A stretch of DNA of 20,000 nt. Source: an uncultured virus (IMG/VR IMGVR_UViG_3300025108_004750). Its lineage: Duplodnaviria; Heunggongvirae; Uroviricota; Caudoviricetes. Positions 2,507 through 20,000 of the stretch are shown here, in pieces. The translations under genes and the position numbers were made by a program. Position 1 is the stretch's first letter; the number at the start of each line of letters is the position of its first letter. The notes under the pieces were generated by a model, which saw only the letters and a list, made by a program, of their open reading frames with translations, was not told the DNA's origin and ran no database searches. The stretch is taken from the IMG/VR virus record IMGVR_UViG_3300025108_004750. The stretch is one strand, 5' to 3'.

Positions 2507-3220
2507 ATGTTTAGTAACATTGATAAAAGTATGATGCTTAAACTTGCACTTCTGCACGTTGTAGTGATTACTATTTCAAATGCTTTAGTTTCTATTCCGG
2601 TAGAAATTGCAGGCATTAAATTAACATGGGCGGCGTTTACATTCCCGCTTGTGGTATTAGCAACTGACTTAACTGTTAGAATGCTAGGCAAGAACATTGC
2701 TAGAGCAACTATTGCGGCGGCATATCCACTTGCTATTATTGGATCAATCGCAGTAGTACTTGCTGAAGGTGCTCCACAGTCAGTAGCAATGCGTATTGGT
2801 TTTGCATCAGCAACTGCATACGCCGTAGGTACAATGCTCGATGTATATGTATTCCAATATATTAGAGAGAAGATGTCAGCATGGTGGTTAGCACCAGCAT
2901 TGTCAACAGTTGTTGCAAACATCATCGATACATACACATTCTTCGCAGTAGCGTTTAATAACTCAGCAGATGAGTATATGGCCGCTAACTGGATGGAGAT
3001 TGCAGGATCGCAAGTTGTGATTAAGATTGCAGTAGGTTTAATTATCTTCCTACCAGCATACGGTGTACTACTACGTTACCTAAACGGTAAACTAGGAGAG
3101 GACATTCTTGTGCTAAAAGATGAAGTAGTTGAAAAGCCAAAAGCAAAGGCAAAAGTAAAAGCCCCAGCTAAAAAGACTACTGCTAAAAAGACTACTAAGT
3201 CTAAAGCGAAAAAAGGCTAA
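2507..3220 (+). CDS. yhhQ: Queuosine precursor (preQ0/preQ1) transporter, YhhQ/VUT family, with a Lys/Ala-rich C-terminal tail
   Basis: Multi-pass membrane protein. Motifs TWAAFTFP..LATDLTVR, LDVYVF, WWLAP, WMEIA and FLPAYGVLL match my recollection of E. coli YhhQ. Confidence 0.9.
   Translation: MFSNIDKSMMLKLALLHVVVITISNALVSIPVEIAGIKLTWAAFTFPLVVLATDLTVRMLGKNIARATIAAAYPLAIIGSIAVVLAEGAPQSVAMRIGFASATAYAVGTMLDVYVFQYIREKMSAWWLAPALSTVVANIIDTYTFFAVAFNNSADEYMAANWMEIAGSQVVIKIAVGLIIFLPAYGVLLRYLNGKLGEDILVLKDEVVEKPKAKAKVKAPAKKTTAKKTTKSKAKKG
3167..3196 (+). repeat. Perfect 15-bp tandem repeat (GCTAAAAAGACTACT x2) encoding AKKTT AKKTT
   Basis: Read directly at 3167-3181 and 3182-3196. Confidence 0.9.
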
Positions 3221-3225
3221 TTGAT

Positions 3226-3498
3226 ATGGGTAAACTTATACCCAATCAAGCACTGATATACGAGCGTAGCGAAGGAGTCGTCTACGCTCGTTATCGTGAT
3301 CCGCCACATAATAAAATACCTCGTTGGGTAATAGGTGGCGAGCCAGATGCAACTGCAAAAGCATTAGGCATTGTAAGTTATGACGAATGGAAAAATGTAA
3401 TGCGAATTGCAGAAAGTAATGCAAATGTTAAAAAACAATTTGATAGACTAATGACAATGTATTATGTAGTCAAAGATGAACAAGAGGAAATCCAATGA
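3226..3498 (+). CDS. Phage hypothetical protein
   Basis: 90-aa ORF with an ATGA overlap into kdsA. LIYER..GVVYAR N-terminal pattern. Confidence 0.75.
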   Translation: MGKLIPNQALIYERSEGVVYARYRDPPHNKIPRWVIGGEPDATAKALGIVSYDEWKNVMRIAESNANVKKQFDRLMTMYYVVKDEQEEIQ

Positions 3499-4268
3499 GA
3501 ATTATAGCAGGGCCATGCCAACACGAAACACTTACAGAAAGTTTAATGATTGCTAAAGAGTGTCAACGTGTATGTGATAAACACGGCATTGAATATTATT
3601 TTAAAGCAAGTTTTGATAAAGCAAATAGAAGCAGTATGCAGGGCAAGCGAGGTGTTGGATTAAATGCAACACTAACTGACTTTCAACAAATAAAAGACAC
3701 AGTGGGCTCTAAGACGCTCACAGACGTTCATACAGTAGAGCAAATTAGTCACGTTACTACTTTCTTTAATAATGCTGTAGACGTACTACAAATACCCGCA
3801 TTTCTTTGTAGACAAACTGACCTATTACAGGCGGCTTGTTCTACAGATAAAATAGTAAATATAAAGAAGGGACAATTTTTAGCTCCCTGGGATGTCAAAG
3901 GTATACTAAGCAAGTGTACAGATGCCAACGAAGTTTGGATTACTGAGAGAGGAACAAGTTTTGGATACAATAGTCTTGTTGTGGATTATACTGGTCTTAT
4001 CTATATGCTCGATAATTATGATAATGATATTGTGTTTGATGTTACGCACTCTGTCCAAAAACCCGGAGGACTGGGGGATAGTAGCGGCGGGAATCGTGAT
4101 TACGTGCCTGGGCTCGCTCGTGCTGGGTCTGCTCTTGGGATCACTTCCTTCTTCCTCGAAGTCCACCCTATGCCTGATGACTCGCCAAGCGATGGTCCAA
4201 ATATGCTTAGACTAGATGACTTCGAACAAGTAGTGGATGACTTAGTTAAATATCAGTATGAACAATAA
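3495..4268 (+). CDS. kdsA: 3-deoxy-8-phosphooctulonate (KDO8P) synthase
   Basis: IIAGPC, FKASFDKANRSS, LQIPAFLCRQTDL, NIKKGQFLAP, TERGTSFGY, FDVTHSVQ and SDGPN signatures. The N-terminal Cys suggests the metal-dependent class. Confidence 0.97.
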   Translation: MRIIAGPCQHETLTESLMIAKECQRVCDKHGIEYYFKASFDKANRSSMQGKRGVGLNATLTDFQQIKDTVGSKTLTDVHTVEQISHVTTFFNNAVDVLQIPAFLCRQTDLLQAACSTDKIVNIKKGQFLAPWDVKGILSKCTDANEVWITERGTSFGYNSLVVDYTGLIYMLDNYDNDIVFDVTHSVQKPGGLGDSSGGNRDYVPGLARAGSALGITSFFLEVHPMPDDSPSDGPNMLRLDDFEQVVDDLVKYQYEQ

Positions 4269-5259
4269 ATTTGAAAATGCTTATAACCAAGTAGCACAAG
4301 CCTGTCCTCCTATATGGATGATGCGACAAGCTGGCAGATATCAAAAAGGTTATATGGAAATGAAAGAACATTGGTCGTTTGAACAAATGTGTAAACTACC
4401 AAGACTAGCAAGCCAAGTTGCTATGCTACCAATTAATCAGTTTGACTTTGACATTGCAATACTGTTTAGTGATATATTATTTCCTATTGAAGGATTAGGT
4501 GTACCATTAAAGTTTGATCCAGGTCCAAAATTTGAATGGCACATTAACGAAGAAAATTATAAACAACATTCTAATATTCAACTTGCTGTAAACCATATGG
4601 AGTTTCAAGCAAAGGCAGTAACAGCAACAAGAGAAGCACTACCTGCTAAAAAAAGTTTAATAGGTTTTGTTGGCGGACCGTGGACACTACTAAACTATGC
4701 TATAGGCAAAGATGCAAAAGTAAGTTTAGGTTGGAAAACAAAATACATGAATGAAGTTATTATGCCTTTGCTTGTACGTAATATTCATTTGCAATTAGAT
4801 GCTGGTGCTGAAAAAGTAATGATACTTGATAGTGGTGTAGGTAATATGAGCGAAAGCTATTTTAAGAAGCACTACGTTAACACACTACAACCAATGATAC
4901 AAACTGACACAGGCTATTACACACAACACTTAAATTCAAGATGCTTACCTACTCTATATAAAATGGGGTGGGCAGGTATAGGTATTGATAGTACTGTTGA
5001 TATTACTAACACATTTAAAAAATATAAAGACGGATTTATTCAGGGCAATTTTGACGAAAAACTTTTACTGTTACCAAAAGAAGAATGTAGAGCACACATT
5101 GAAGATTTTTGTAACACAATGCAAACAATCGACCGTACAGGTTGGATCTGCGGACTAGGACATGGTATAACTAAAGAAACACCAGAAGAAAATGTTAAAA
5201 TGTTTGTAGATATGATAAGAGAAAGATTCGATGAAAACAGCAATACTAATACCCGCTAG
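4258..5259 (+). CDS. hemE: Uroporphyrinogen III decarboxylase
   Basis: PIWMMRQAGRY, AILFSDIL, LIGFVGGPWTLLNY, IQGNFD and LGHGI...TPEENV signatures, full length at 333 aa. Confidence 0.95.
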   Translation: MNNKFENAYNQVAQACPPIWMMRQAGRYQKGYMEMKEHWSFEQMCKLPRLASQVAMLPINQFDFDIAILFSDILFPIEGLGVPLKFDPGPKFEWHINEENYKQHSNIQLAVNHMEFQAKAVTATREALPAKKSLIGFVGGPWTLLNYAIGKDAKVSLGWKTKYMNEVIMPLLVRNIHLQLDAGAEKVMILDSGVGNMSESYFKKHYVNTLQPMIQTDTGYYTQHLNSRCLPTLYKMGWAGIGIDSTVDITNTFKKYKDGFIQGNFDEKLLLLPKEECRAHIEDFCNTMQTIDRTGWICGLGHGITKETPEENVKMFVDMIRERFDENSNTNTR

Positions 5260-5893
5260 ATTAAAGAGTACACGATTAGCTGATAAGATGTTAGTCGAAC
5301 TAGACGGCGTACCATTAATTAAAAGAGTATTTGATATATGTAATGCAACTAAGTTTGACACTTACATTGTAACAGATAGTTTAGAGATTGCAGAAATATC
5401 TCCTAACTTTATTCTTACAGGAGAAGCAAGTAACGGCACAGAAAGATGTGCATTAGCCGCACGTGAGTTAAATTATGATCAGTATATTAACGTGCAAGGC
5501 GATATGCCTGACATACGACCTGATATGATAAAAGACGTAGCAGATTATCTACAGTATTATCCAATTACAACTTTGTTTACTGGTATGGATAAGGAAGAAC
5601 AAAATAAACCTAGCACTGTTAAAATGATACGTGCAGGTGACAAAGCTCTTTGGTTTGGTAGAGGTATGCAGGGTTATGGTGAATGGCACTTAGGTGTGTA
5701 CGGTTATAGGGCGGATGCATTAAACTTATATCCAAACCTAGAAGTAACAGTAGAAGAAGAAACAGAAAAATTAGAACAACTACGTTGGCTCAAAGCAGGC
5801 TGGGATATAGGTTGCACAAGAGTAGATTTTAAAGGCGTAGAGATAAACACACAAGAAGATATTCTTCTTTGGAATCACAAAAATAATGCTTGA
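5231..5893 (+). CDS. kdsB: 3-deoxy-manno-octulosonate cytidylyltransferase (CMP-KDO synthetase)
   Basis: IPARLKSTRL..K, NGTER, INVQGDMP, HLGVYGY, EKLEQLRWL and EINT.ED motifs. Confidence 0.95.
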   Translation: MKTAILIPARLKSTRLADKMLVELDGVPLIKRVFDICNATKFDTYIVTDSLEIAEISPNFILTGEASNGTERCALAARELNYDQYINVQGDMPDIRPDMIKDVADYLQYYPITTLFTGMDKEEQNKPSTVKMIRAGDKALWFGRGMQGYGEWHLGVYGYRADALNLYPNLEVTVEEETEKLEQLRWLKAGWDIGCTRVDFKGVEINTQEDILLWNHKNNA

Positions 5894-8871: not shown

Positions 8872-9426
8872 ATGCCTGATATTGATATTGACTTTGCTGA
8901 TAGAGATGTTGTTTTAAATAAAATACAACACCGTGTAGCAAAACTAGATAGTGGTAAGAAACATAACACAGGTGTGTATGCAACTGAAGTTCCGCACAAC
9001 CCTGTCGACAACATAAGTACTATTGAACACAAGACTGCAGAAGAACGCGGTTACTTCAAACTAGACTTTCTTAATGTAAGCATATACCAAAACGTTAAGA
9101 ATGAACAACACCTAATAGAACTAATGGAAAGGACACCACTATGGCAACTTTTGGAGCACAAAGACTTCGTAGACAAAGTTTTTCATCTCTCAGGACACGA
9201 CAAACTGTTGAAACAATTGAAGCCCACATCGGTAGAACAATTGGCTGTCACCCTTGCGATTATAAGGCCTGCCAAGAGGCATTTAGCAAATCAAAGTTGG
9301 GAAGAAATATTAAAAGAAGTTTGGATAAAGCCGACCAACGGTGATTACTTCTTTAAGAAGGCACATGCCTTTGCTTACGCAATGAGCGTAATAGTACACA
9401 TGAACTTAATATGCGAAGAGGTGTAA
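8872..9426 (+). CDS. Miniature/split DNA polymerase III alpha (C-family) catalytic-core-like protein
   Basis: Starts at PDIDIDF, then HNTGVY, FKLDFL, LAIIRP and FFKKAHAFAYA. These are the DnaE palm and fingers motifs in the correct order within 184 aa. Confidence 0.8.
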   Translation: MPDIDIDFADRDVVLNKIQHRVAKLDSGKKHNTGVYATEVPHNPVDNISTIEHKTAEERGYFKLDFLNVSIYQNVKNEQHLIELMERTPLWQLLEHKDFVDKVFHLSGHDKLLKQLKPTSVEQLAVTLAIIRPAKRHLANQSWEEILKEVWIKPTNGDYFFKKAHAFAYAMSVIVHMNLICEEV

Positions 9427-16780: not shown

Positions 16781-17558
16781 AAAACAAACAGGTAGAACAC
16801 TATGGATATACGGAGACAGTTTCGCAGTTGACTGGAAGGTTGATTGGGGTTGGCAAAGACAAGCGGCTGTTATGCTAGATGTAGATAGAGTTGTTAACCA
16901 AGCATGTGCTGGTTCATCAAATGAATGGAGTGCTATGCAGTTGCGTAACGACGAACAAAAGCCCGGAGACATTGTTGTGTTCTTTACTACAGAAAACTCT
17001 CGTCAATGGTTCTTTGAAGATAGACCCTATCTCTCAAACCTTGCTAGTATTACTGACACACAAGATGCCAAAGAACTAGAACGAGCAGAGCCAGAAAAGT
17101 ATCGTGCTATCATGGACTACTGGTTACACCTACAGCGTGATGACGTTGATCAACTGCGTATGGAACATATGATTGACAGCATACGTGTACAGACCATCGA
17201 AGGCGAACTGAGACTAATAGTAATTCCAAGTTTTATTTCAAACATGAGCTTTACTGACCTTATACCTGTGTATGGCAACATGACCTTTAGTGTGTGCGAT
17301 GGTGAGTTTGCAAATGAACAAGAAATGAGACTGTGGTACAATCAATCAATTGATACTAGAGCCAATCACATGACACTAGCAAATCATGGAGTGTTTGCAC
17401 GTAAACTAGTGACCAGTCTAGATGAAGGTAAGCCTTTGGATCTTGAATCAGGATTTGATCGTGGTATGCTCACACACAAAGACAAACTCACACACCCAGG
17501 ATTGTTGCCAGAGTTAATTGAAATGGCACGAGCACCTGGCAATACTATTCCAAAATAG
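16773..17558 (+). CDS. SGNH/GDSL hydrolase-like protein
   Basis: IYGDSF (block I), NQACAGSSN (block II) and NHMT..NH (block V-like). Confidence 0.6.
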   Translation: MDRKQTGRTLWIYGDSFAVDWKVDWGWQRQAAVMLDVDRVVNQACAGSSNEWSAMQLRNDEQKPGDIVVFFTTENSRQWFFEDRPYLSNLASITDTQDAKELERAEPEKYRAIMDYWLHLQRDDVDQLRMEHMIDSIRVQTIEGELRLIVIPSFISNMSFTDLIPVYGNMTFSVCDGEFANEQEMRLWYNQSIDTRANHMTLANHGVFARKLVTSLDEGKPLDLESGFDRGMLTHKDKLTHPGLLPELIEMARAPGNTIPK

Positions 17559-17559
17559 G

Positions 17560-17588
17560 TTGACAAACAAAGCAAAATAGTATAATAT
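17560..17588 (+). promoter_or_regulatory. Sigma70-type promoter TTGACA-N17-TAATAT (or N15-TATAAT), probably leaderless
   Basis: -35 at 17560-17565, AT-rich -10 at 17581-17588, ATG at 17596, no Shine-Dalgarno. Confidence 0.7.
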
Positions 17589-17595
17589 ATATAAA

Positions 17596-17982
17596 ATGAA
17601 CATAACACCAATATTCGCTGTAGCAATACTATTGCCACAGGTCACGGATAATAGGTACTTGCAATTATTAATTCCTTTGTTACTGATGTTGACAAAGGAT
17701 TTTTTTATTGGTTTCCATTCACTGATGCTTCCTGTATATGCTTGTACAATACTGTTTTGTTTGTTTGGCAAATACTTTAAACCAATCACAGCTACATTCA
17801 CAGGAGTGTTTTTGTGGCACATAGTGGTGAACTGGGCAGTATGGTATTCATATGGCGGCGATCTACTACAAACATATATCCAAGCTATTCCCTTTGATTT
17901 TAATCTATTAGTTAGTACGTTGATATGTGTACTAATAGGAGACTTATGTATAAAATATTACTATCGCTATTATTCTTATTAA
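17596..17982 (+). CDS. Small inner-membrane transporter, DUF6580/BtuM-like (ECF S-component-like)
   Basis: Hydrophobic 128-aa protein with NITPIFAVA, PLLLML.KD.FIGFH, VVNWAVW and YIQAIPF..N.L motifs, which I recall from the DUF6580 family. Overlaps the downstream receptor gene. Confidence 0.65.
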   Translation: MNITPIFAVAILLPQVTDNRYLQLLIPLLLMLTKDFFIGFHSLMLPVYACTILFCLFGKYFKPITATFTGVFLWHIVVNWAVWYSYGGDLLQTYIQAIPFDFNLLVSTLICVLIGDLCIKYYYRYYSY

Positions 17983-19715
17983 TGGCAACGCCTGCAAAGG
18001 CAACACTTGAATTAACAATCTATATGATACGTAGTGCAACAGATGCTACTACTGCTACAACAACATATGACTACGTTGACTCATACACTATTAGTCATAC
18101 CAATAGTACAGACTTTGTGCAAGCAGTAAACACAGTTACAGGACTCAATCTAGTACAAAGCGGACCAACAGGACAGAATGTTAGTTTGTTTATGCGTGGT
18201 GGCGACAGCAATCACACACTGGTAACTATGAACGGACTACCAATAGGTGATGCTAGTACAACCAACGGACTACATGACTTTGGTAACAACTTCATGGGTA
18301 CTATTACAGCAATAGAAATAGTCAAGAACCCAAGTGGTGCAATGGTAGGTCCTAACTCAATAGGTGGTGTAGTAAACTTTATTACAGGTGATGTATATGA
18401 AAGTAGTATAGACTTTGGCATAGCATCAAACGACACACGTAGCGTTAGAGCAAAAACTTTTACAACTGTAGACAATACTGTGGTCAGCATAAGCATAGAT
18501 GGTACCCAATCAGATGGTATCAGTGTTGTACCCAACGGTGCAGAGTCAGATGGCTATGATGCACGTAGCATTAATGTTACTACCAACACTCTTACTGAAT
18601 CAGGCAAACTAAAGACCAGTCACACAGTAACCAACAACAACAGTGACCTAGACACAACTGTGGACGACCCAGACTACACAGCAACAGTAGGCTCACACAT
18701 ACACAGCGTACACTACACACAGGGCAACTCAAGCCTAGCATATGGATACAGTGCATATGACAGAACATACACAAACGGTTCAGAGACAGACACTTACGAT
18801 AGCAAAAGACACACCCTATTGGGTACGTATACAATCACAGGCAATGGTGTTGATATAGTACCTGGCATAGAATATTCACATGTGAGTGCAGACTTCAACA
18901 ACACAGGCTCATACGCCAGCAGTGTAGATGCATGGGAATACAACACAGCAGTATTTGTAAACACCAATTGGATTGCAACAGAAGATTGGATCATAAGCAC
19001 AGGTGTTAGACAGGACACACTAGAAGACTATGATGACTATACAACTGCACGTATAGGATCAAGTTACAGTGTGACCAGTGATCTACAACTGCGTACCAAC
19101 TGGAGCAACAGTGTGCGTACACCTACACTGTATGAACGCTATGGTGCAGACAACTATGGATACACCGGCAACACACAACTTGAAGTAGAACGTGGATCTA
19201 CAGTTGATGTTGGCTTCACACTGGGTACATTAGATGTTGTATACTACACAACTTGGATAGACAATGCAATAACATACGGCAATAGCACATACACAAACAC
19301 TCGTGGAACAAGCACACGCAAGGGTGTTGAACTGGAGTATGCACAGGATCTCTCACACCAGTGGCATCACACTATAGGCGCTCATTGGAGTGTAGCACAA
19401 GACAGTTCGCACACGCAACTACTGCGTAGACCTCGTTGGCGTATAAACAACAGCCTATCAAAGACTGTGGACACAGCTAGTACAACACTAGCACACACCT
19501 ACACAGGTGCTCACCGGGATCTAGATGCAAGCACATACCTTGCCAAGACAATGCCAGGTGTGCATACGTTTGATCTACATCACACAGTATACTTTAACAC
19601 CACCCAAAGCATAAGTGCAAGCATACGCAATATCACAGATGAATCATACCAACAACCAGACGGCTATGCACAGGCAGGACGTAACTTTGCTATTACATAT
19701 AGCGTGAAATTTTAA
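17946..19715 (+). CDS. btuB: TonB-dependent outer membrane receptor, BtuB (cobalamin receptor)-like
   Basis: Signal peptide MYKILLSLLFLLMATPAKA from ATG 17946. Plug SGPTGQNVSLFMRGGDSNHTLV..NG, GGVVNFIT, PTLYE.YG..GN..L..E, LLRRPR, NITDESYQ...GY...GR and a terminal Phe. TonB-dependent receptor call is secure; B12 specificity is inferred. Confidence 0.8.
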   Translation: MYKILLSLLFLLMATPAKATLELTIYMIRSATDATTATTTYDYVDSYTISHTNSTDFVQAVNTVTGLNLVQSGPTGQNVSLFMRGGDSNHTLVTMNGLPIGDASTTNGLHDFGNNFMGTITAIEIVKNPSGAMVGPNSIGGVVNFITGDVYESSIDFGIASNDTRSVRAKTFTTVDNTVVSISIDGTQSDGISVVPNGAESDGYDARSINVTTNTLTESGKLKTSHTVTNNNSDLDTTVDDPDYTATVGSHIHSVHYTQGNSSLAYGYSAYDRTYTNGSETDTYDSKRHTLLGTYTITGNGVDIVPGIEYSHVSADFNNTGSYASSVDAWEYNTAVFVNTNWIATEDWIISTGVRQDTLEDYDDYTTARIGSSYSVTSDLQLRTNWSNSVRTPTLYERYGADNYGYTGNTQLEVERGSTVDVGFTLGTLDVVYYTTWIDNAITYGNSTYTNTRGTSTRKGVELEYAQDLSHQWHHTIGAHWSVAQDSSHTQLLRRPRWRINNSLSKTVDTASTTLAHTYTGAHRDLDASTYLAKTMPGVHTFDLHHTVYFNTTQSISASIRNITDESYQQPDGYAQAGRNFAITYSVKF

Positions 19716-19719
19716 AAAG

Positions 19720-19746
19720 CCACCGTTTAATTCACCCACCATTTAA
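19720..19746. repeat. Direct repeat CCACCRTTTAA x2, 16-bp period
   Basis: CCACCGTTTAA at 19720-19730 and CCACCATTTAA at 19736-19746. Confidence 0.7.
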
Positions 19747-19771
19747 ATAGTCTGTCGTGCATGAAAAACAC

Positions 19772-19871
19772 GCCTATATGGCTCTTAAATTGCACTTAAG
19801 GCAAAAAGCTATACATTGTACTGCCTAAGCGAACTTCACCTGTTAAACACCTATTTAATACACATATAGGC
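19772..19871. repeat. Nested inverted repeats forming a ~100-nt branched stem-loop
   Basis: GCCTATATG (19772-19780)/CATATAGGC (19863-19871), TTAAAT (19785-19790)/ATTTAA (19853-19858), and inner CTTAAGGCA (19795-19803)/TGCCTAAG (19822-19829). Confidence 0.7.
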
Positions 19872-19890
19872 ACCATGTACATAAGAACAA

Positions 19891-19935
19891 AGCCGCGAAG
19901 CGGTAACGCAGATCACGCACAGCTACGAAGTAGTT
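19891..19935 (+). repeat. Two GAA-triloop mini-hairpins 30 nt apart
   Basis: AG-CCGC-GAA-GCGG-T (19891-19904) and AG-CTAC-GAA-GTAG-T (19921-19934). Confidence 0.75.
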
Positions 19936-20000
19936 TCGCAGAAAAATCGGAAGCAGAAATTGAACCTCTTGGCACACACAGTTTGCACACACTAGCTACA

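Follow-up and report, generated by a model that had tools for sequence, protein, structure and literature searches.

The 20,000-nt stretch analysed here (hereafter the window), from IMG/VR record IMGVR_UViG_3300025108_004750, carries at 17560..19715 a pair of overlapping genes on the + strand that would probably together provide a route for corrinoid uptake across both membranes of an infected cell. The two open reading frames (ORFs) span 17596-17982 (128 amino acids, aa) and 17925-19715 (596 aa). The first encodes a small polytopic membrane protein of the Pfam family DUF6580 (PF20221; 17596..17982), a candidate inner-membrane corrinoid carrier, and the second an intact TonB-dependent transporter that groups with the vitamin B12 receptor BtuB. 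Two overlapping genes of this kind behind a sigma70-like promoter had been described in a first-pass annotation made from the sequence alone, and the ORFs, Pfam domains and promoter conservation bear this out.

Translation of the receptor most likely begins at ATG 17946, giving a protein of 589 aa (17946..19715), rather than at the alternative start 17925, because a ribosome-binding site AGGAG, read from the sequence at 17937..17941 (+) within the DUF6580 gene, lies 4 nt upstream, an independent 589-aa gene call (P0030) is 100% identical, and the N-termini of relatives align there. With this start the two genes overlap by 37 nt. The promoter (17560..17588, +) consists of TTGACA at 17560-17565, a 17-nt spacer and TAATAT ending at 17588, and agrees with the consensus at 10 of 12 positions. 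Taken by itself such a match is at chance level (10 sites in a scan of the region versus a shuffle mean of 9.6); its conservation is another matter, TTGAC and TAGTATAA-AT being invariant in 5/5 aligned phage sequences, one of which has a receptor of only 58% identity. The window contains three copies of the pattern TTGAC-N16-19-TAWAAT, each on the + strand, where 0.24 would be expected, and 0 of 200 shuffles reached this count. TAATAT ends 7 nt before the DUF6580 ATG, and since this leaves no room for a leader and there is no Shine-Dalgarno sequence, the DUF6580 mRNA would be leaderless or nearly so.

The TonB-dependent receptor

The receptor has the architecture of E. coli BtuB (PDB 1NQE-1NQH, 2GSK) at a similar size, 589 versus 614 aa. 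A signal peptide, MYKILLSLLFLLMATPAKA (17946..18002, +; assigned by eye), ends in PAKA ahead of TLE, and is followed by a TonB-box-like segment LELTIYM (18006..18026, +), a Plug domain (18054..18371, +; PF07715, residues 44-149 of the 596-aa frame, E 1.8e-14), a beta-barrel domain (18480..19634, +; PF00593, TonB_dep_Rec_b-barrel, residues 186-570 of the same frame, E 2.5e-24) and a C-terminus SVKF (+ strand, ending at 19712) whose last residue is the aromatic Phe. The AlphaFold model, built with 22 sequences, contains approximately 22 strands, with a predicted local distance difference test score (pLDDT) of 83.3 and a pTM of 0.84; pLDDT is low at residues 8-27. The signal peptide, plug, barrel and terminal Phe of the first-pass annotation are all recovered by Pfam, the model and reading by eye, as are its BtuB-like motifs GQNVSLFMRGGDSNHTLV, LLRR and DGYAQAGRNF, which align with E. 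coli BtuB.

E. coli BtuB, or the family defined on it, is also the best match of the receptor by family profile, sequence and fold. The highest-scoring NCBIfam model is TIGR01779 (TonB-dependent vitamin B12 receptor), which aligns over its whole length with 164 bits and E 5e-48, followed by enterobacterial BtuB NF007926 (122.1 bits), the next family at 72 bits and CirA at 45 bits. Both BtuB scores are far under the equivalog cut-offs, and the receptor is therefore not filed as a BtuB equivalog; the earlier description as BtuB-like stands at the level of family, clade and model and does not extend to equivalence. The closest solved homologue by sequence is E. coli BtuB (PDB, E 1.6e-16), then Cir. 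With the model as Foldseek query, the first 12 rows were all E. coli BtuB (E 2.8e-33, TMq up to 0.87 for 2gsk_A), with root-mean-square deviations (rmsd) of 2.7-3.4 A, a single entry modelled from cross-links excepted, and the first other protein was Cir (TMq 0.82).

There are also differences from E. coli BtuB. The two proteins share 22% identity, and the window gene is phage-encoded and has no riboswitch. The window TonB box, ELTIYM, stands opposite DTLVVTA in the alignment; E-x-T-I-Y is kept across the phage family, as judged from the alignment. The Ca2+-site residues of E. coli BtuB, which we take to be D179, Q191, D193, D195, D230 and D241 (each a D or a Q in E. coli BtuB), correspond to S, a gap, E, D, D and D in the window. 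Thus, four of the six presumed positions are acidic, while D179, replaced by Ser, and Q191 have no equivalents.

Cellular relatives of the receptor are closely associated with cobalamin riboswitches. One genome per species was scanned, giving 371 stretches of which the best 80 were kept; 40 of these, mostly matched over most of their length, were taken further, their genomes being searched with RF00174 and the coordinates compared. In 36 of the 40 (35/39 without L062, whose genome is flagged as unpublished), the receptor gene is preceded, at a distance of at most about 340 nt, by a cobalamin riboswitch in the same orientation. Among the remaining four, two have a riboswitch 1.7 and 3.6 kb upstream and two have none, one of the latter starting approximately 170 nt from a contig end. 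The association appears specific, since most of these genomes contain only 1-3 such riboswitches (two have five). The nearest cellular relative, in a Pelagibacteraceae single-cell genome (L005), is 27% identical over residues 49-586 and is preceded, about 100 nt before its start, by an AdoCbl-II riboswitch (RF01689, 86.4 bits; its RF00174 score is weak).

A tree of 75 rows was generated by a quick IQ-TREE search under LG+G4, from the phage and metagenome family, 39 cellular proteins, the receptor of the cellular locus L103 and seven E. coli K-12 receptors. It assigns the window receptor to the BtuB clade: a group of 69 rows (SH-aLRT 96%) unites E. coli BtuB, all cellular relatives (all but four with a near riboswitch) and the phage family, with CirA, FepA, FhuA, FecA, Fiu and PqqU falling outside. 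Clustering with siderophore or heme receptors, which the first-pass annotation had named as grounds for abandoning its proposal, is thus not what the tree displays. Within the clade, the window receptor and the Pelagibacteraceae protein belong to a 100% group of 22 rows; their exact sister relation is tentative, because many rows were flagged for odd composition.

The receptor is under purifying selection, with ratios of nonsynonymous to synonymous substitution rates (dN/dS) of 0.20-0.24. In the same phage pairs (window versus the related loci L001, L002 and L004), receptors are 68% and DUF6580 proteins 91-92% identical in amino acids, at dN/dS of 0.2 versus 0.05. Faster divergence of the receptor is what would be expected if exposed loops were under pressure.

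The DUF6580 membrane protein

The product of the first gene matches the DUF6580 profile with E 1e-14 and 55.5 bits (cut-off 27), residues 1-113 falling on profile positions 27-146 of 162. All 18 members of the DUF6580 alignment used here (A3) match the same family, and a Pfam scan of these members at E <= 5 revealed no second family in common. A profile search of 1.84 billion cluster representatives gave 6213 DUF6580 matches at E <= 0.001, typically 170-190 aa long, and a protein atlas search returned DUF6580 clusters only. The family is rare in the genomes sampled, occurring in 5/40 of those with receptor relatives, 3/301 Pseudomonadota, 6/151 Planctomycetota and 0/14 control genomes.

A longer reading frame in the window is excluded by an in-frame TAG at 17578-17580. 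The related phage locus L003 encodes a full 157-aa DUF6580 protein after the same promoter, and the closest phage subgroup, by alignment, appears to share the loss of the first helix. Topology and activity of this form may differ from those of the full protein. It does not seem to be decaying, given its low dN/dS (0.05-0.09) and its 91-98% amino-acid identity between phages whose receptors are 68-96% identical. There are 29 homologues at E <= 0.001, mostly of 119-143 aa.

The AlphaFold (AF2) model of the 128-aa protein is confident (pLDDT 92.8) and contains six helices. An alignment-based structure search of 48,161 chains placed BtuM with hydroxycobalamin (8ovv_A) at the top, with rmsd 2.5 A and a Z-score of 11.6, which is under the tool's caution level of about 13, where helical bundles may share a common arrangement. 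The match aligns 124 of 128 residues to BtuM residues 27-182 at 7% identity. Ranks 2-16 (Z 7.4-10.5; 104-127 residues) are membrane components of the energy-coupling factor (ECF) type, mostly S-components together with CbiM and a truncated metal transporter, the exception being the MreC-MreD entry 9dvb at rank 11; unrelated rows further down the list align only 52-88 residues. Based on this uniform match list and the near-full coverage, a reasonable reading of the model is that the DUF6580 protein has the ECF S-component fold. On the model, the choice of BtuM over other S-components as best structural match is nearly a tie.

BtuM of Thiobacillus denitrificans is a solitary S-component-type B12 transporter that needs no ECF module (Rempel et al. 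2018, PMC6072759; PDB 8OVV). According to excerpts of that paper, BtuM was predicted partly from co-localisation with btuB, and its essential cobalt-ligating residue, Cys80, lies in loop 3 (PMC6072759). DUF6580 resembles it in being a small polytopic membrane protein with, in the model, an S-component fold. It differs in lacking detectable sequence similarity: neither the single sequence nor the profile brought up a BtuM chain among the PDB sequence matches at E <= 10, which is compatible with distant homology. A3 contains no invariant cysteine as a counterpart of Cys80, Cys50 being kept only in the phage subclade and within a predicted helix, and the protein is not filed in the BtuM family. 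The phage form also lacks helix 1 and aligns only from BtuM residue 27. Thus, of the DUF6580/BtuM-like label given to this gene earlier, the Pfam family and the predicted fold with BtuM as top match hold; the sequence searches bring no BtuM match, and the form is a truncated one. We propose from the model that DUF6580 may work like BtuM. An ECF module (EcfT, EcfA/A') was not found among the Pfam matches of the 24 window ORFs.

In the PDB, the single DUF6580 sequence matched nothing at E <= 10. The 18-member profile had one near match, not significant, to the 182-aa membrane chain of 6FNP (ECF-CbrT; E 0.031, nearly full length), presumably CbrT itself judging from length and label. ECF-CbrT is specific for B12, and CbrT is a cobalamin-specific S-component that requires the ECF module (Santos et al. 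2018, PMC5997447); the excerpts of that paper place its gene in an nrdJ-cbrS-cbrT-pduO cluster. The likeness extends to pduO, which also adjoins cellular DUF6580 genes, and ends at the ECF module, which is absent from the window Pfam scan.

The neighbourhood of cellular DUF6580 genes points to cobalamin. Twelve such loci were fetched and their neighbours annotated, and 8 of the 12 are linked to cobalamin (L098, L101, L102 and L106 are not). Five have a cobalamin riboswitch upstream on the same strand (L103, L104, L105, L107, L108). A PduO-type cobalamin adenosyltransferase gene is present in three, directly after DUF6580 in L099 and L100 and last in the operon in L103; L103 and L105 include a BtuF-like binding protein, and in L109, from Pelagibacteraceae, a B12-binding radical SAM gene follows a DUF6580 fragment (1/12). 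The order in L103 is riboswitch, TonB-dependent receptor, DUF6580, Dph6-like ATP pyrophosphatase, BtuF-like protein and PduO.

Two further observations concern these loci. A Dph6-like gene (Diphthami_syn_2) stands beside DUF6580 in three riboswitch-controlled cellular operons (L103 4409-5074, L104 4689-5387, L105 5957-6655) and, by eye, also in L085/L098; Dph6-like proteins are not known to act in corrinoid salvage. In the Pelagibacteraceae single-cell genome, the AdoCbl-II riboswitch and receptor lie at one contig end (L005, 5635-7668) and a 5'-truncated DUF6580 gene with the radical SAM gene at another (L109, 1247-3044). These ends may be adjacent, which would give the order riboswitch-receptor-DUF6580-radical SAM.

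The gene pair in viral contigs

A search of IMG/VR with the receptor alignment identified 149 stretches with relatives, of which the best 80 loci (26-88% identity, on contigs of up to 328 kb) were used. In 53 of these 80, the A3 profile detects DUF6580 as the gene directly before the receptor and in the same orientation; the gap ranges from -67 to +185 nt, and the pairing holds down to 31% receptor identity. The gene pair is thus a fixed cassette in viral contigs. The other 27 loci have no upstream DUF6580, one of them having no upstream sequence. Solitary viral receptors include L182-L192 and L161-L167, and one group, 26-27% identical, consists of shorter proteins, such as that of the 535-aa ORF of L186. 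One metagenomic protein of 922 aa (P0142) combines DUF6580, Plug and barrel in a single ORF, either as a true fusion or as a merged gene call.

An AdoCbl-II riboswitch (RF01689) was identified with Rfam at gathering score at 5 of the 11 viral loci tested, just upstream of DUF6580 in L120, L124, L127 and L134 (receptors 41-44% identical) and between the two genes in L159. The same riboswitch class is common to these phage cassettes and the Pelagibacteraceae locus. Riboswitches, which were not part of the checks suggested by the first-pass annotation, tie both gene families and the phage cassette to cobalamin. No riboswitch was detected in the window (at gathering score, or at E <= 1) or in L001-L004. 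The simplest history is that the cassette arrived with a riboswitch and that the lineage of the window swapped the switch for a promoter. Cellular modules (L103 and the Pelagibacteraceae L005) contain the same two families and differ in several respects: in L103 the gene order is reversed, with the receptor first, the phage pair has no adjacent salvage enzymes, and the window lineage has a promoter in the place of the riboswitch.

Downstream of the pair, approximately 60 nt 3' of the receptor stop codon, is a non-coding block of 30 nt, CCTATATGGCTCTTAAATTGCACTTAAGGC (19773..19802, no strand assigned), that is near-invariant in 5/5 aligned relatives and is flanked by variable sequence. It has no second copy in the window and no conserved secondary structure, and may be a protein-binding or promoter element.

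The window is best explained as one section of the very large genome of a marine phage; CheckV estimates for relatives suggest a genome size of roughly 350-480 kb. The proteins of the window include a UvsW-like helicase, a primase, a DnaB-type helicase, pieces of a DNA polymerase and members of several phage-only PHROG families (Pfam, PHROGs), and phage-specific PHROGs flank the gene pair. The DnaB protein is 49.9% identical to that of the Pseudomonas jumbo phage PA5oct (E 2e-133), the second-best match being Agrobacterium phage Atu_ph07. Compared by megablast with 50,697 phage records, the window had no match, and the receptor has only a weak match in PHROGs, to the unnamed phrog_5687. With tblastn the receptor matched six records of the same collection (23-36% identity), but these look bacterial by annotation (16S rRNA, btuB), and the collection thus yielded no relative in a described phage. 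No tRNAs were found in the window.

It might be argued that the pair is bacterial DNA joined to phage DNA by misassembly, given that cellular-type genes lie at the window edge and that 18-20 kb has a slightly higher guanine-plus-cytosine (GC) content and a negative GC skew. This is rejected because the junction is shared and independently bridged, and we consider it hardly credible. The order primase..DnaB..DUF6065-CN hydrolase-261 aa-DUF6580-receptor is common to four IMG/VR contigs with receptors 58-88% identical. At least 92% of sampled words of 16800-20000 are present in 10 marine metagenome runs, and contigs from independent runs bridge the junction (X6, 6972 bp, covering 16800-20000; X2, 3443 bp, covering 16800-19357). 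Run X23, with a metatranscriptomic label and flagged as probably DNA, contains only a relative of about 93% similarity. Furthermore, 149 viral stretches encode receptor relatives, and the nearest cellular protein is only 27% identical. Of five related records, three encode the large terminase (Terminase_6C), one of them at a distance of about 4 kb from the cassette. A viral rather than chimeric contig, on which the first-pass proposal depended, is thus upheld.

Other genes of the window include a queuosine-precursor transporter of the YhhQ/Vut_1 type at 2507-3220 (+), which scores 113.6 bits with TIGR00697 (cut-off 50.95) and 195 bits with NF008406 (preQ0/preQ1; cut-off 252), and is a second small-molecule import gene within the same 20 kb. 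A run of envelope- and tetrapyrrole-type genes spans 3495-5893 (+): a KdsA-like protein (DAHP_synth_1, 3495-4268), a HemE-like URO-D protein (4258-5259; TIGR01464 214 bits, cut-off 303) with weak matches to the corrinoid methyltransferases MtaA/MtbA, and a KdsB-like cytidylyltransferase (5231-5893). The 184-aa ORF at 8872-9426 (+) belongs to the phage DNA polymerase family phrog_11778 (E 1.9e-58) and has a weak match to the Pol III alpha finger domain, which suggests a split polymerase gene.

Corrinoid uptake and its alternatives

We suggest, with a probability of about 0.7, that the pair is a phage-encoded two-membrane corrinoid uptake cassette, composed of a BtuB-clade receptor and a DUF6580 carrier of S-component fold. 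Under this proposal a host-type promoter would drive both genes, and the transporter would be exported and inserted in the host outer membrane, where it would take up cobalamin or a related corrinoid, energised by host TonB-ExbBD. DUF6580 would then move the corrinoid over the inner membrane without an ATPase module, like solitary BtuM. The two proteins would sit in different membranes, and no direct contact between them is implied. Related cassettes would be turned off by B12 via the AdoCbl-II riboswitch; in the window lineage, given the loss of the riboswitch, the pair would probably be expressed early and unconditionally. The integrity of the genes, their family placement, the predicted folds, the fixed linkage, the riboswitch associations and the viral context stand as results; what is transported and in which direction, whether host TonB is used and how the phage gains from it belong to the proposal. 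As far as computation reaches, the checks called for by the first-pass annotation favour its reading, with three points excepted: the B12-dependent enzymes, the score relative to the equivalog cut-off and the truncation of DUF6580.

TonB was matched in 0 of 5 related records (one of them complete) and not in the one Pelagibacteraceae single-cell genome, by a model that is insensitive (3 of 14 control genomes matched); the lack of a phage TonB match fits the use of the host protein. A host link to Pelagibacteraceae is tentative, coming from a quick tree of compositionally biased proteins.

Several observations weigh against the uptake proposal. The receptor scores 164 bits against a cut-off of 599.7 for TIGR01779 and 122.1 against 836 for NF007926, and shares only 21-27% identity with cellular BtuB-type proteins; the tree that places it was built rapidly with a simple model, and many of its rows have an odd composition. 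The window DUF6580 lacks the first helix found in cellular homologues (A3, 18 members), its structural match is in the range that calls for caution, and Foldseek with its model gave nothing at E <= 0.001, with S-components among the weak rows. In the five of 40 cellular genomes that contain both genes, DUF6580 is never beside the receptor. The riboswitch is missing from the window and its closest relatives. The literature search gave no binding or transport experiment for the receptor or for any DUF6580 protein.

Nor was a consumer of the vitamin found in the window's clade. The first-pass annotation had suggested that the cassette perhaps supplies B12-dependent enzymes such as NrdJ, MetH and QueG; the 13 records of the clade and the Pfam scan of the window gave no match to NrdJ above cut-off, a MetH-type B12-binding domain or PduO. 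Altogether 43 related viral records were searched, all but one of them fragments. NrdJ above cut-off and PduO were each found in 0/43, the B12-binding domain PF02310 in 0/13 of the clade, mostly fragments, and no B12-dependent enzyme family in the Pfam scan of 24 window ORFs; because the records are fragmentary, the lack of matches is not proof of absence. PF02310 does occur in 14 of the 43, scoring above cut-off in 10; as a rule, two large proteins encoded close to the cassette carry it. In records G504-G510, G520 and G525 (L196-L201; receptors 32-34% identical), two B12-binding proteins (frames of 574-581 and 617-622 aa) are encoded on the cassette contig, in some records no more than about 10 kb away from the pair. 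In that clade, these two proteins are candidates for using the vitamin once imported.

The pair could instead import another substrate, such as a corrinoid precursor, another tetrapyrrole (e.g., heme) or an unrelated metabolite, with its BtuB and S-component traits reflecting ancestry only. The strong divergence of the receptor, far under the equivalog cut-off, would fit, as would the incomplete set of acidic residues at the presumed Ca2+ site with Ser for D179, the HemE-like URO-D protein in the same window and the negative search for B12-dependent enzymes in related records of the clade; loss of the riboswitch might accompany a change of ligand. We nevertheless regard it as unlikely, as sister phage cassettes (41-45% receptor identity) retain the AdoCbl-II riboswitch, the surrounding receptor clade is linked to riboswitches throughout, and cellular DUF6580 loci accompany PduO, BtuF-like proteins and cobalamin riboswitches. 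Decidedly improbable, in our estimate, is a function of the receptor as a surface device (a decoy, receptor conversion, superinfection exclusion or envelope change) with DUF6580 as accessory or passenger. BtuB and other TonB-dependent transporters are classic receptors for phages and colicins, and the receptor evolves far faster than DUF6580, as expected under surface pressure. Control by a B12 riboswitch in related cassettes fits nutrient homeostasis and not exclusion, however, and the long-lived linkage to a protein of predicted S-component fold (53/80 loci) has no role in a decoy; the plug, the position of the TonB box and the C-terminal Phe are all retained.

That only the receptor works, the 128-aa DUF6580 being what is left of a gene in decay after its 5' end disappeared along with the riboswitch, is an explanation we hold to be very improbable. 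It would account for a protein that begins at profile position 27 without helix 1, and for the TAG codon that blocks the longer frame while L003 keeps the 157-aa form behind the same promoter. It is at odds with a dN/dS of 0.05-0.09, with 91-98% identity maintained while receptors diverged to 68%, with the 29 homologues of mostly 119-143 aa and with the confident model.

The corrinoid uptake proposal can be extended to a wider scenario, which we hold only tentatively and rate somewhat below even odds. Here, marine phages would carry a self-sufficient two-membrane corrinoid route, DUF6580 proteins would be uncharacterised solitary carriers of S-component fold, and the cassette, which probably was exchanged with SAR11-type bacteria, would have entered with an AdoCbl-II riboswitch. 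In the window lineage it would have come under constitutive control, on a leaderless transcript made early, and its carrier would have been reduced to a minimum of five helices, without the one by which S-components dock on an ECF module, so that infected cells scavenge B12 whatever their own status.

TonB-dependent transporters have been reported from phages before, and the new part is a BtuB-class receptor fixed to a DUF6580 partner. A SusC-like transporter is present in the marine megaphage Mar_Mega_1 (PMC9723777), and siderophore/heme-type transporters occur in phages of ammonia oxidisers, where the role of such transporters as phage receptors was also noted for the phage-borne ones (bioRxiv 10.64898/2026.05.02.722434). 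As far as the excerpts of these two sources go, these are likewise genes of large phages read as nutrient uptake, and they differ in belonging to carbohydrate, siderophore or heme classes with no inner-membrane partner described. In a literature search with thin coverage of subscription journals, no paper containing 'DUF6580' or 'PF20221' was found, nor any published phage B12 receptor, B12 cassette or cobalamin riboswitch with btuB.

For the large orphan family DUF6580, its fixed association with a BtuB-type receptor and its surroundings in cells (riboswitch, PduO, BtuF) suggest a function that can be put to the test, that of a new type of B12 transporter. The riboswitch-bearing and riboswitch-less phage versions represent a natural experiment on the rewiring of host regulation, and complete genomes could answer the question of the missing B12-consuming enzyme in the clade of the window. 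The cassette is common, with receptor relatives in 149 viral stretches. If the proposal is true, it would constitute a new class of auxiliary genes that combines active transport across the outer membrane with an inner-membrane carrier. Vitamin B12 is scarce in the sea and is traded among marine microbes; a B12 gate installed by phages would add viruses to this economy.

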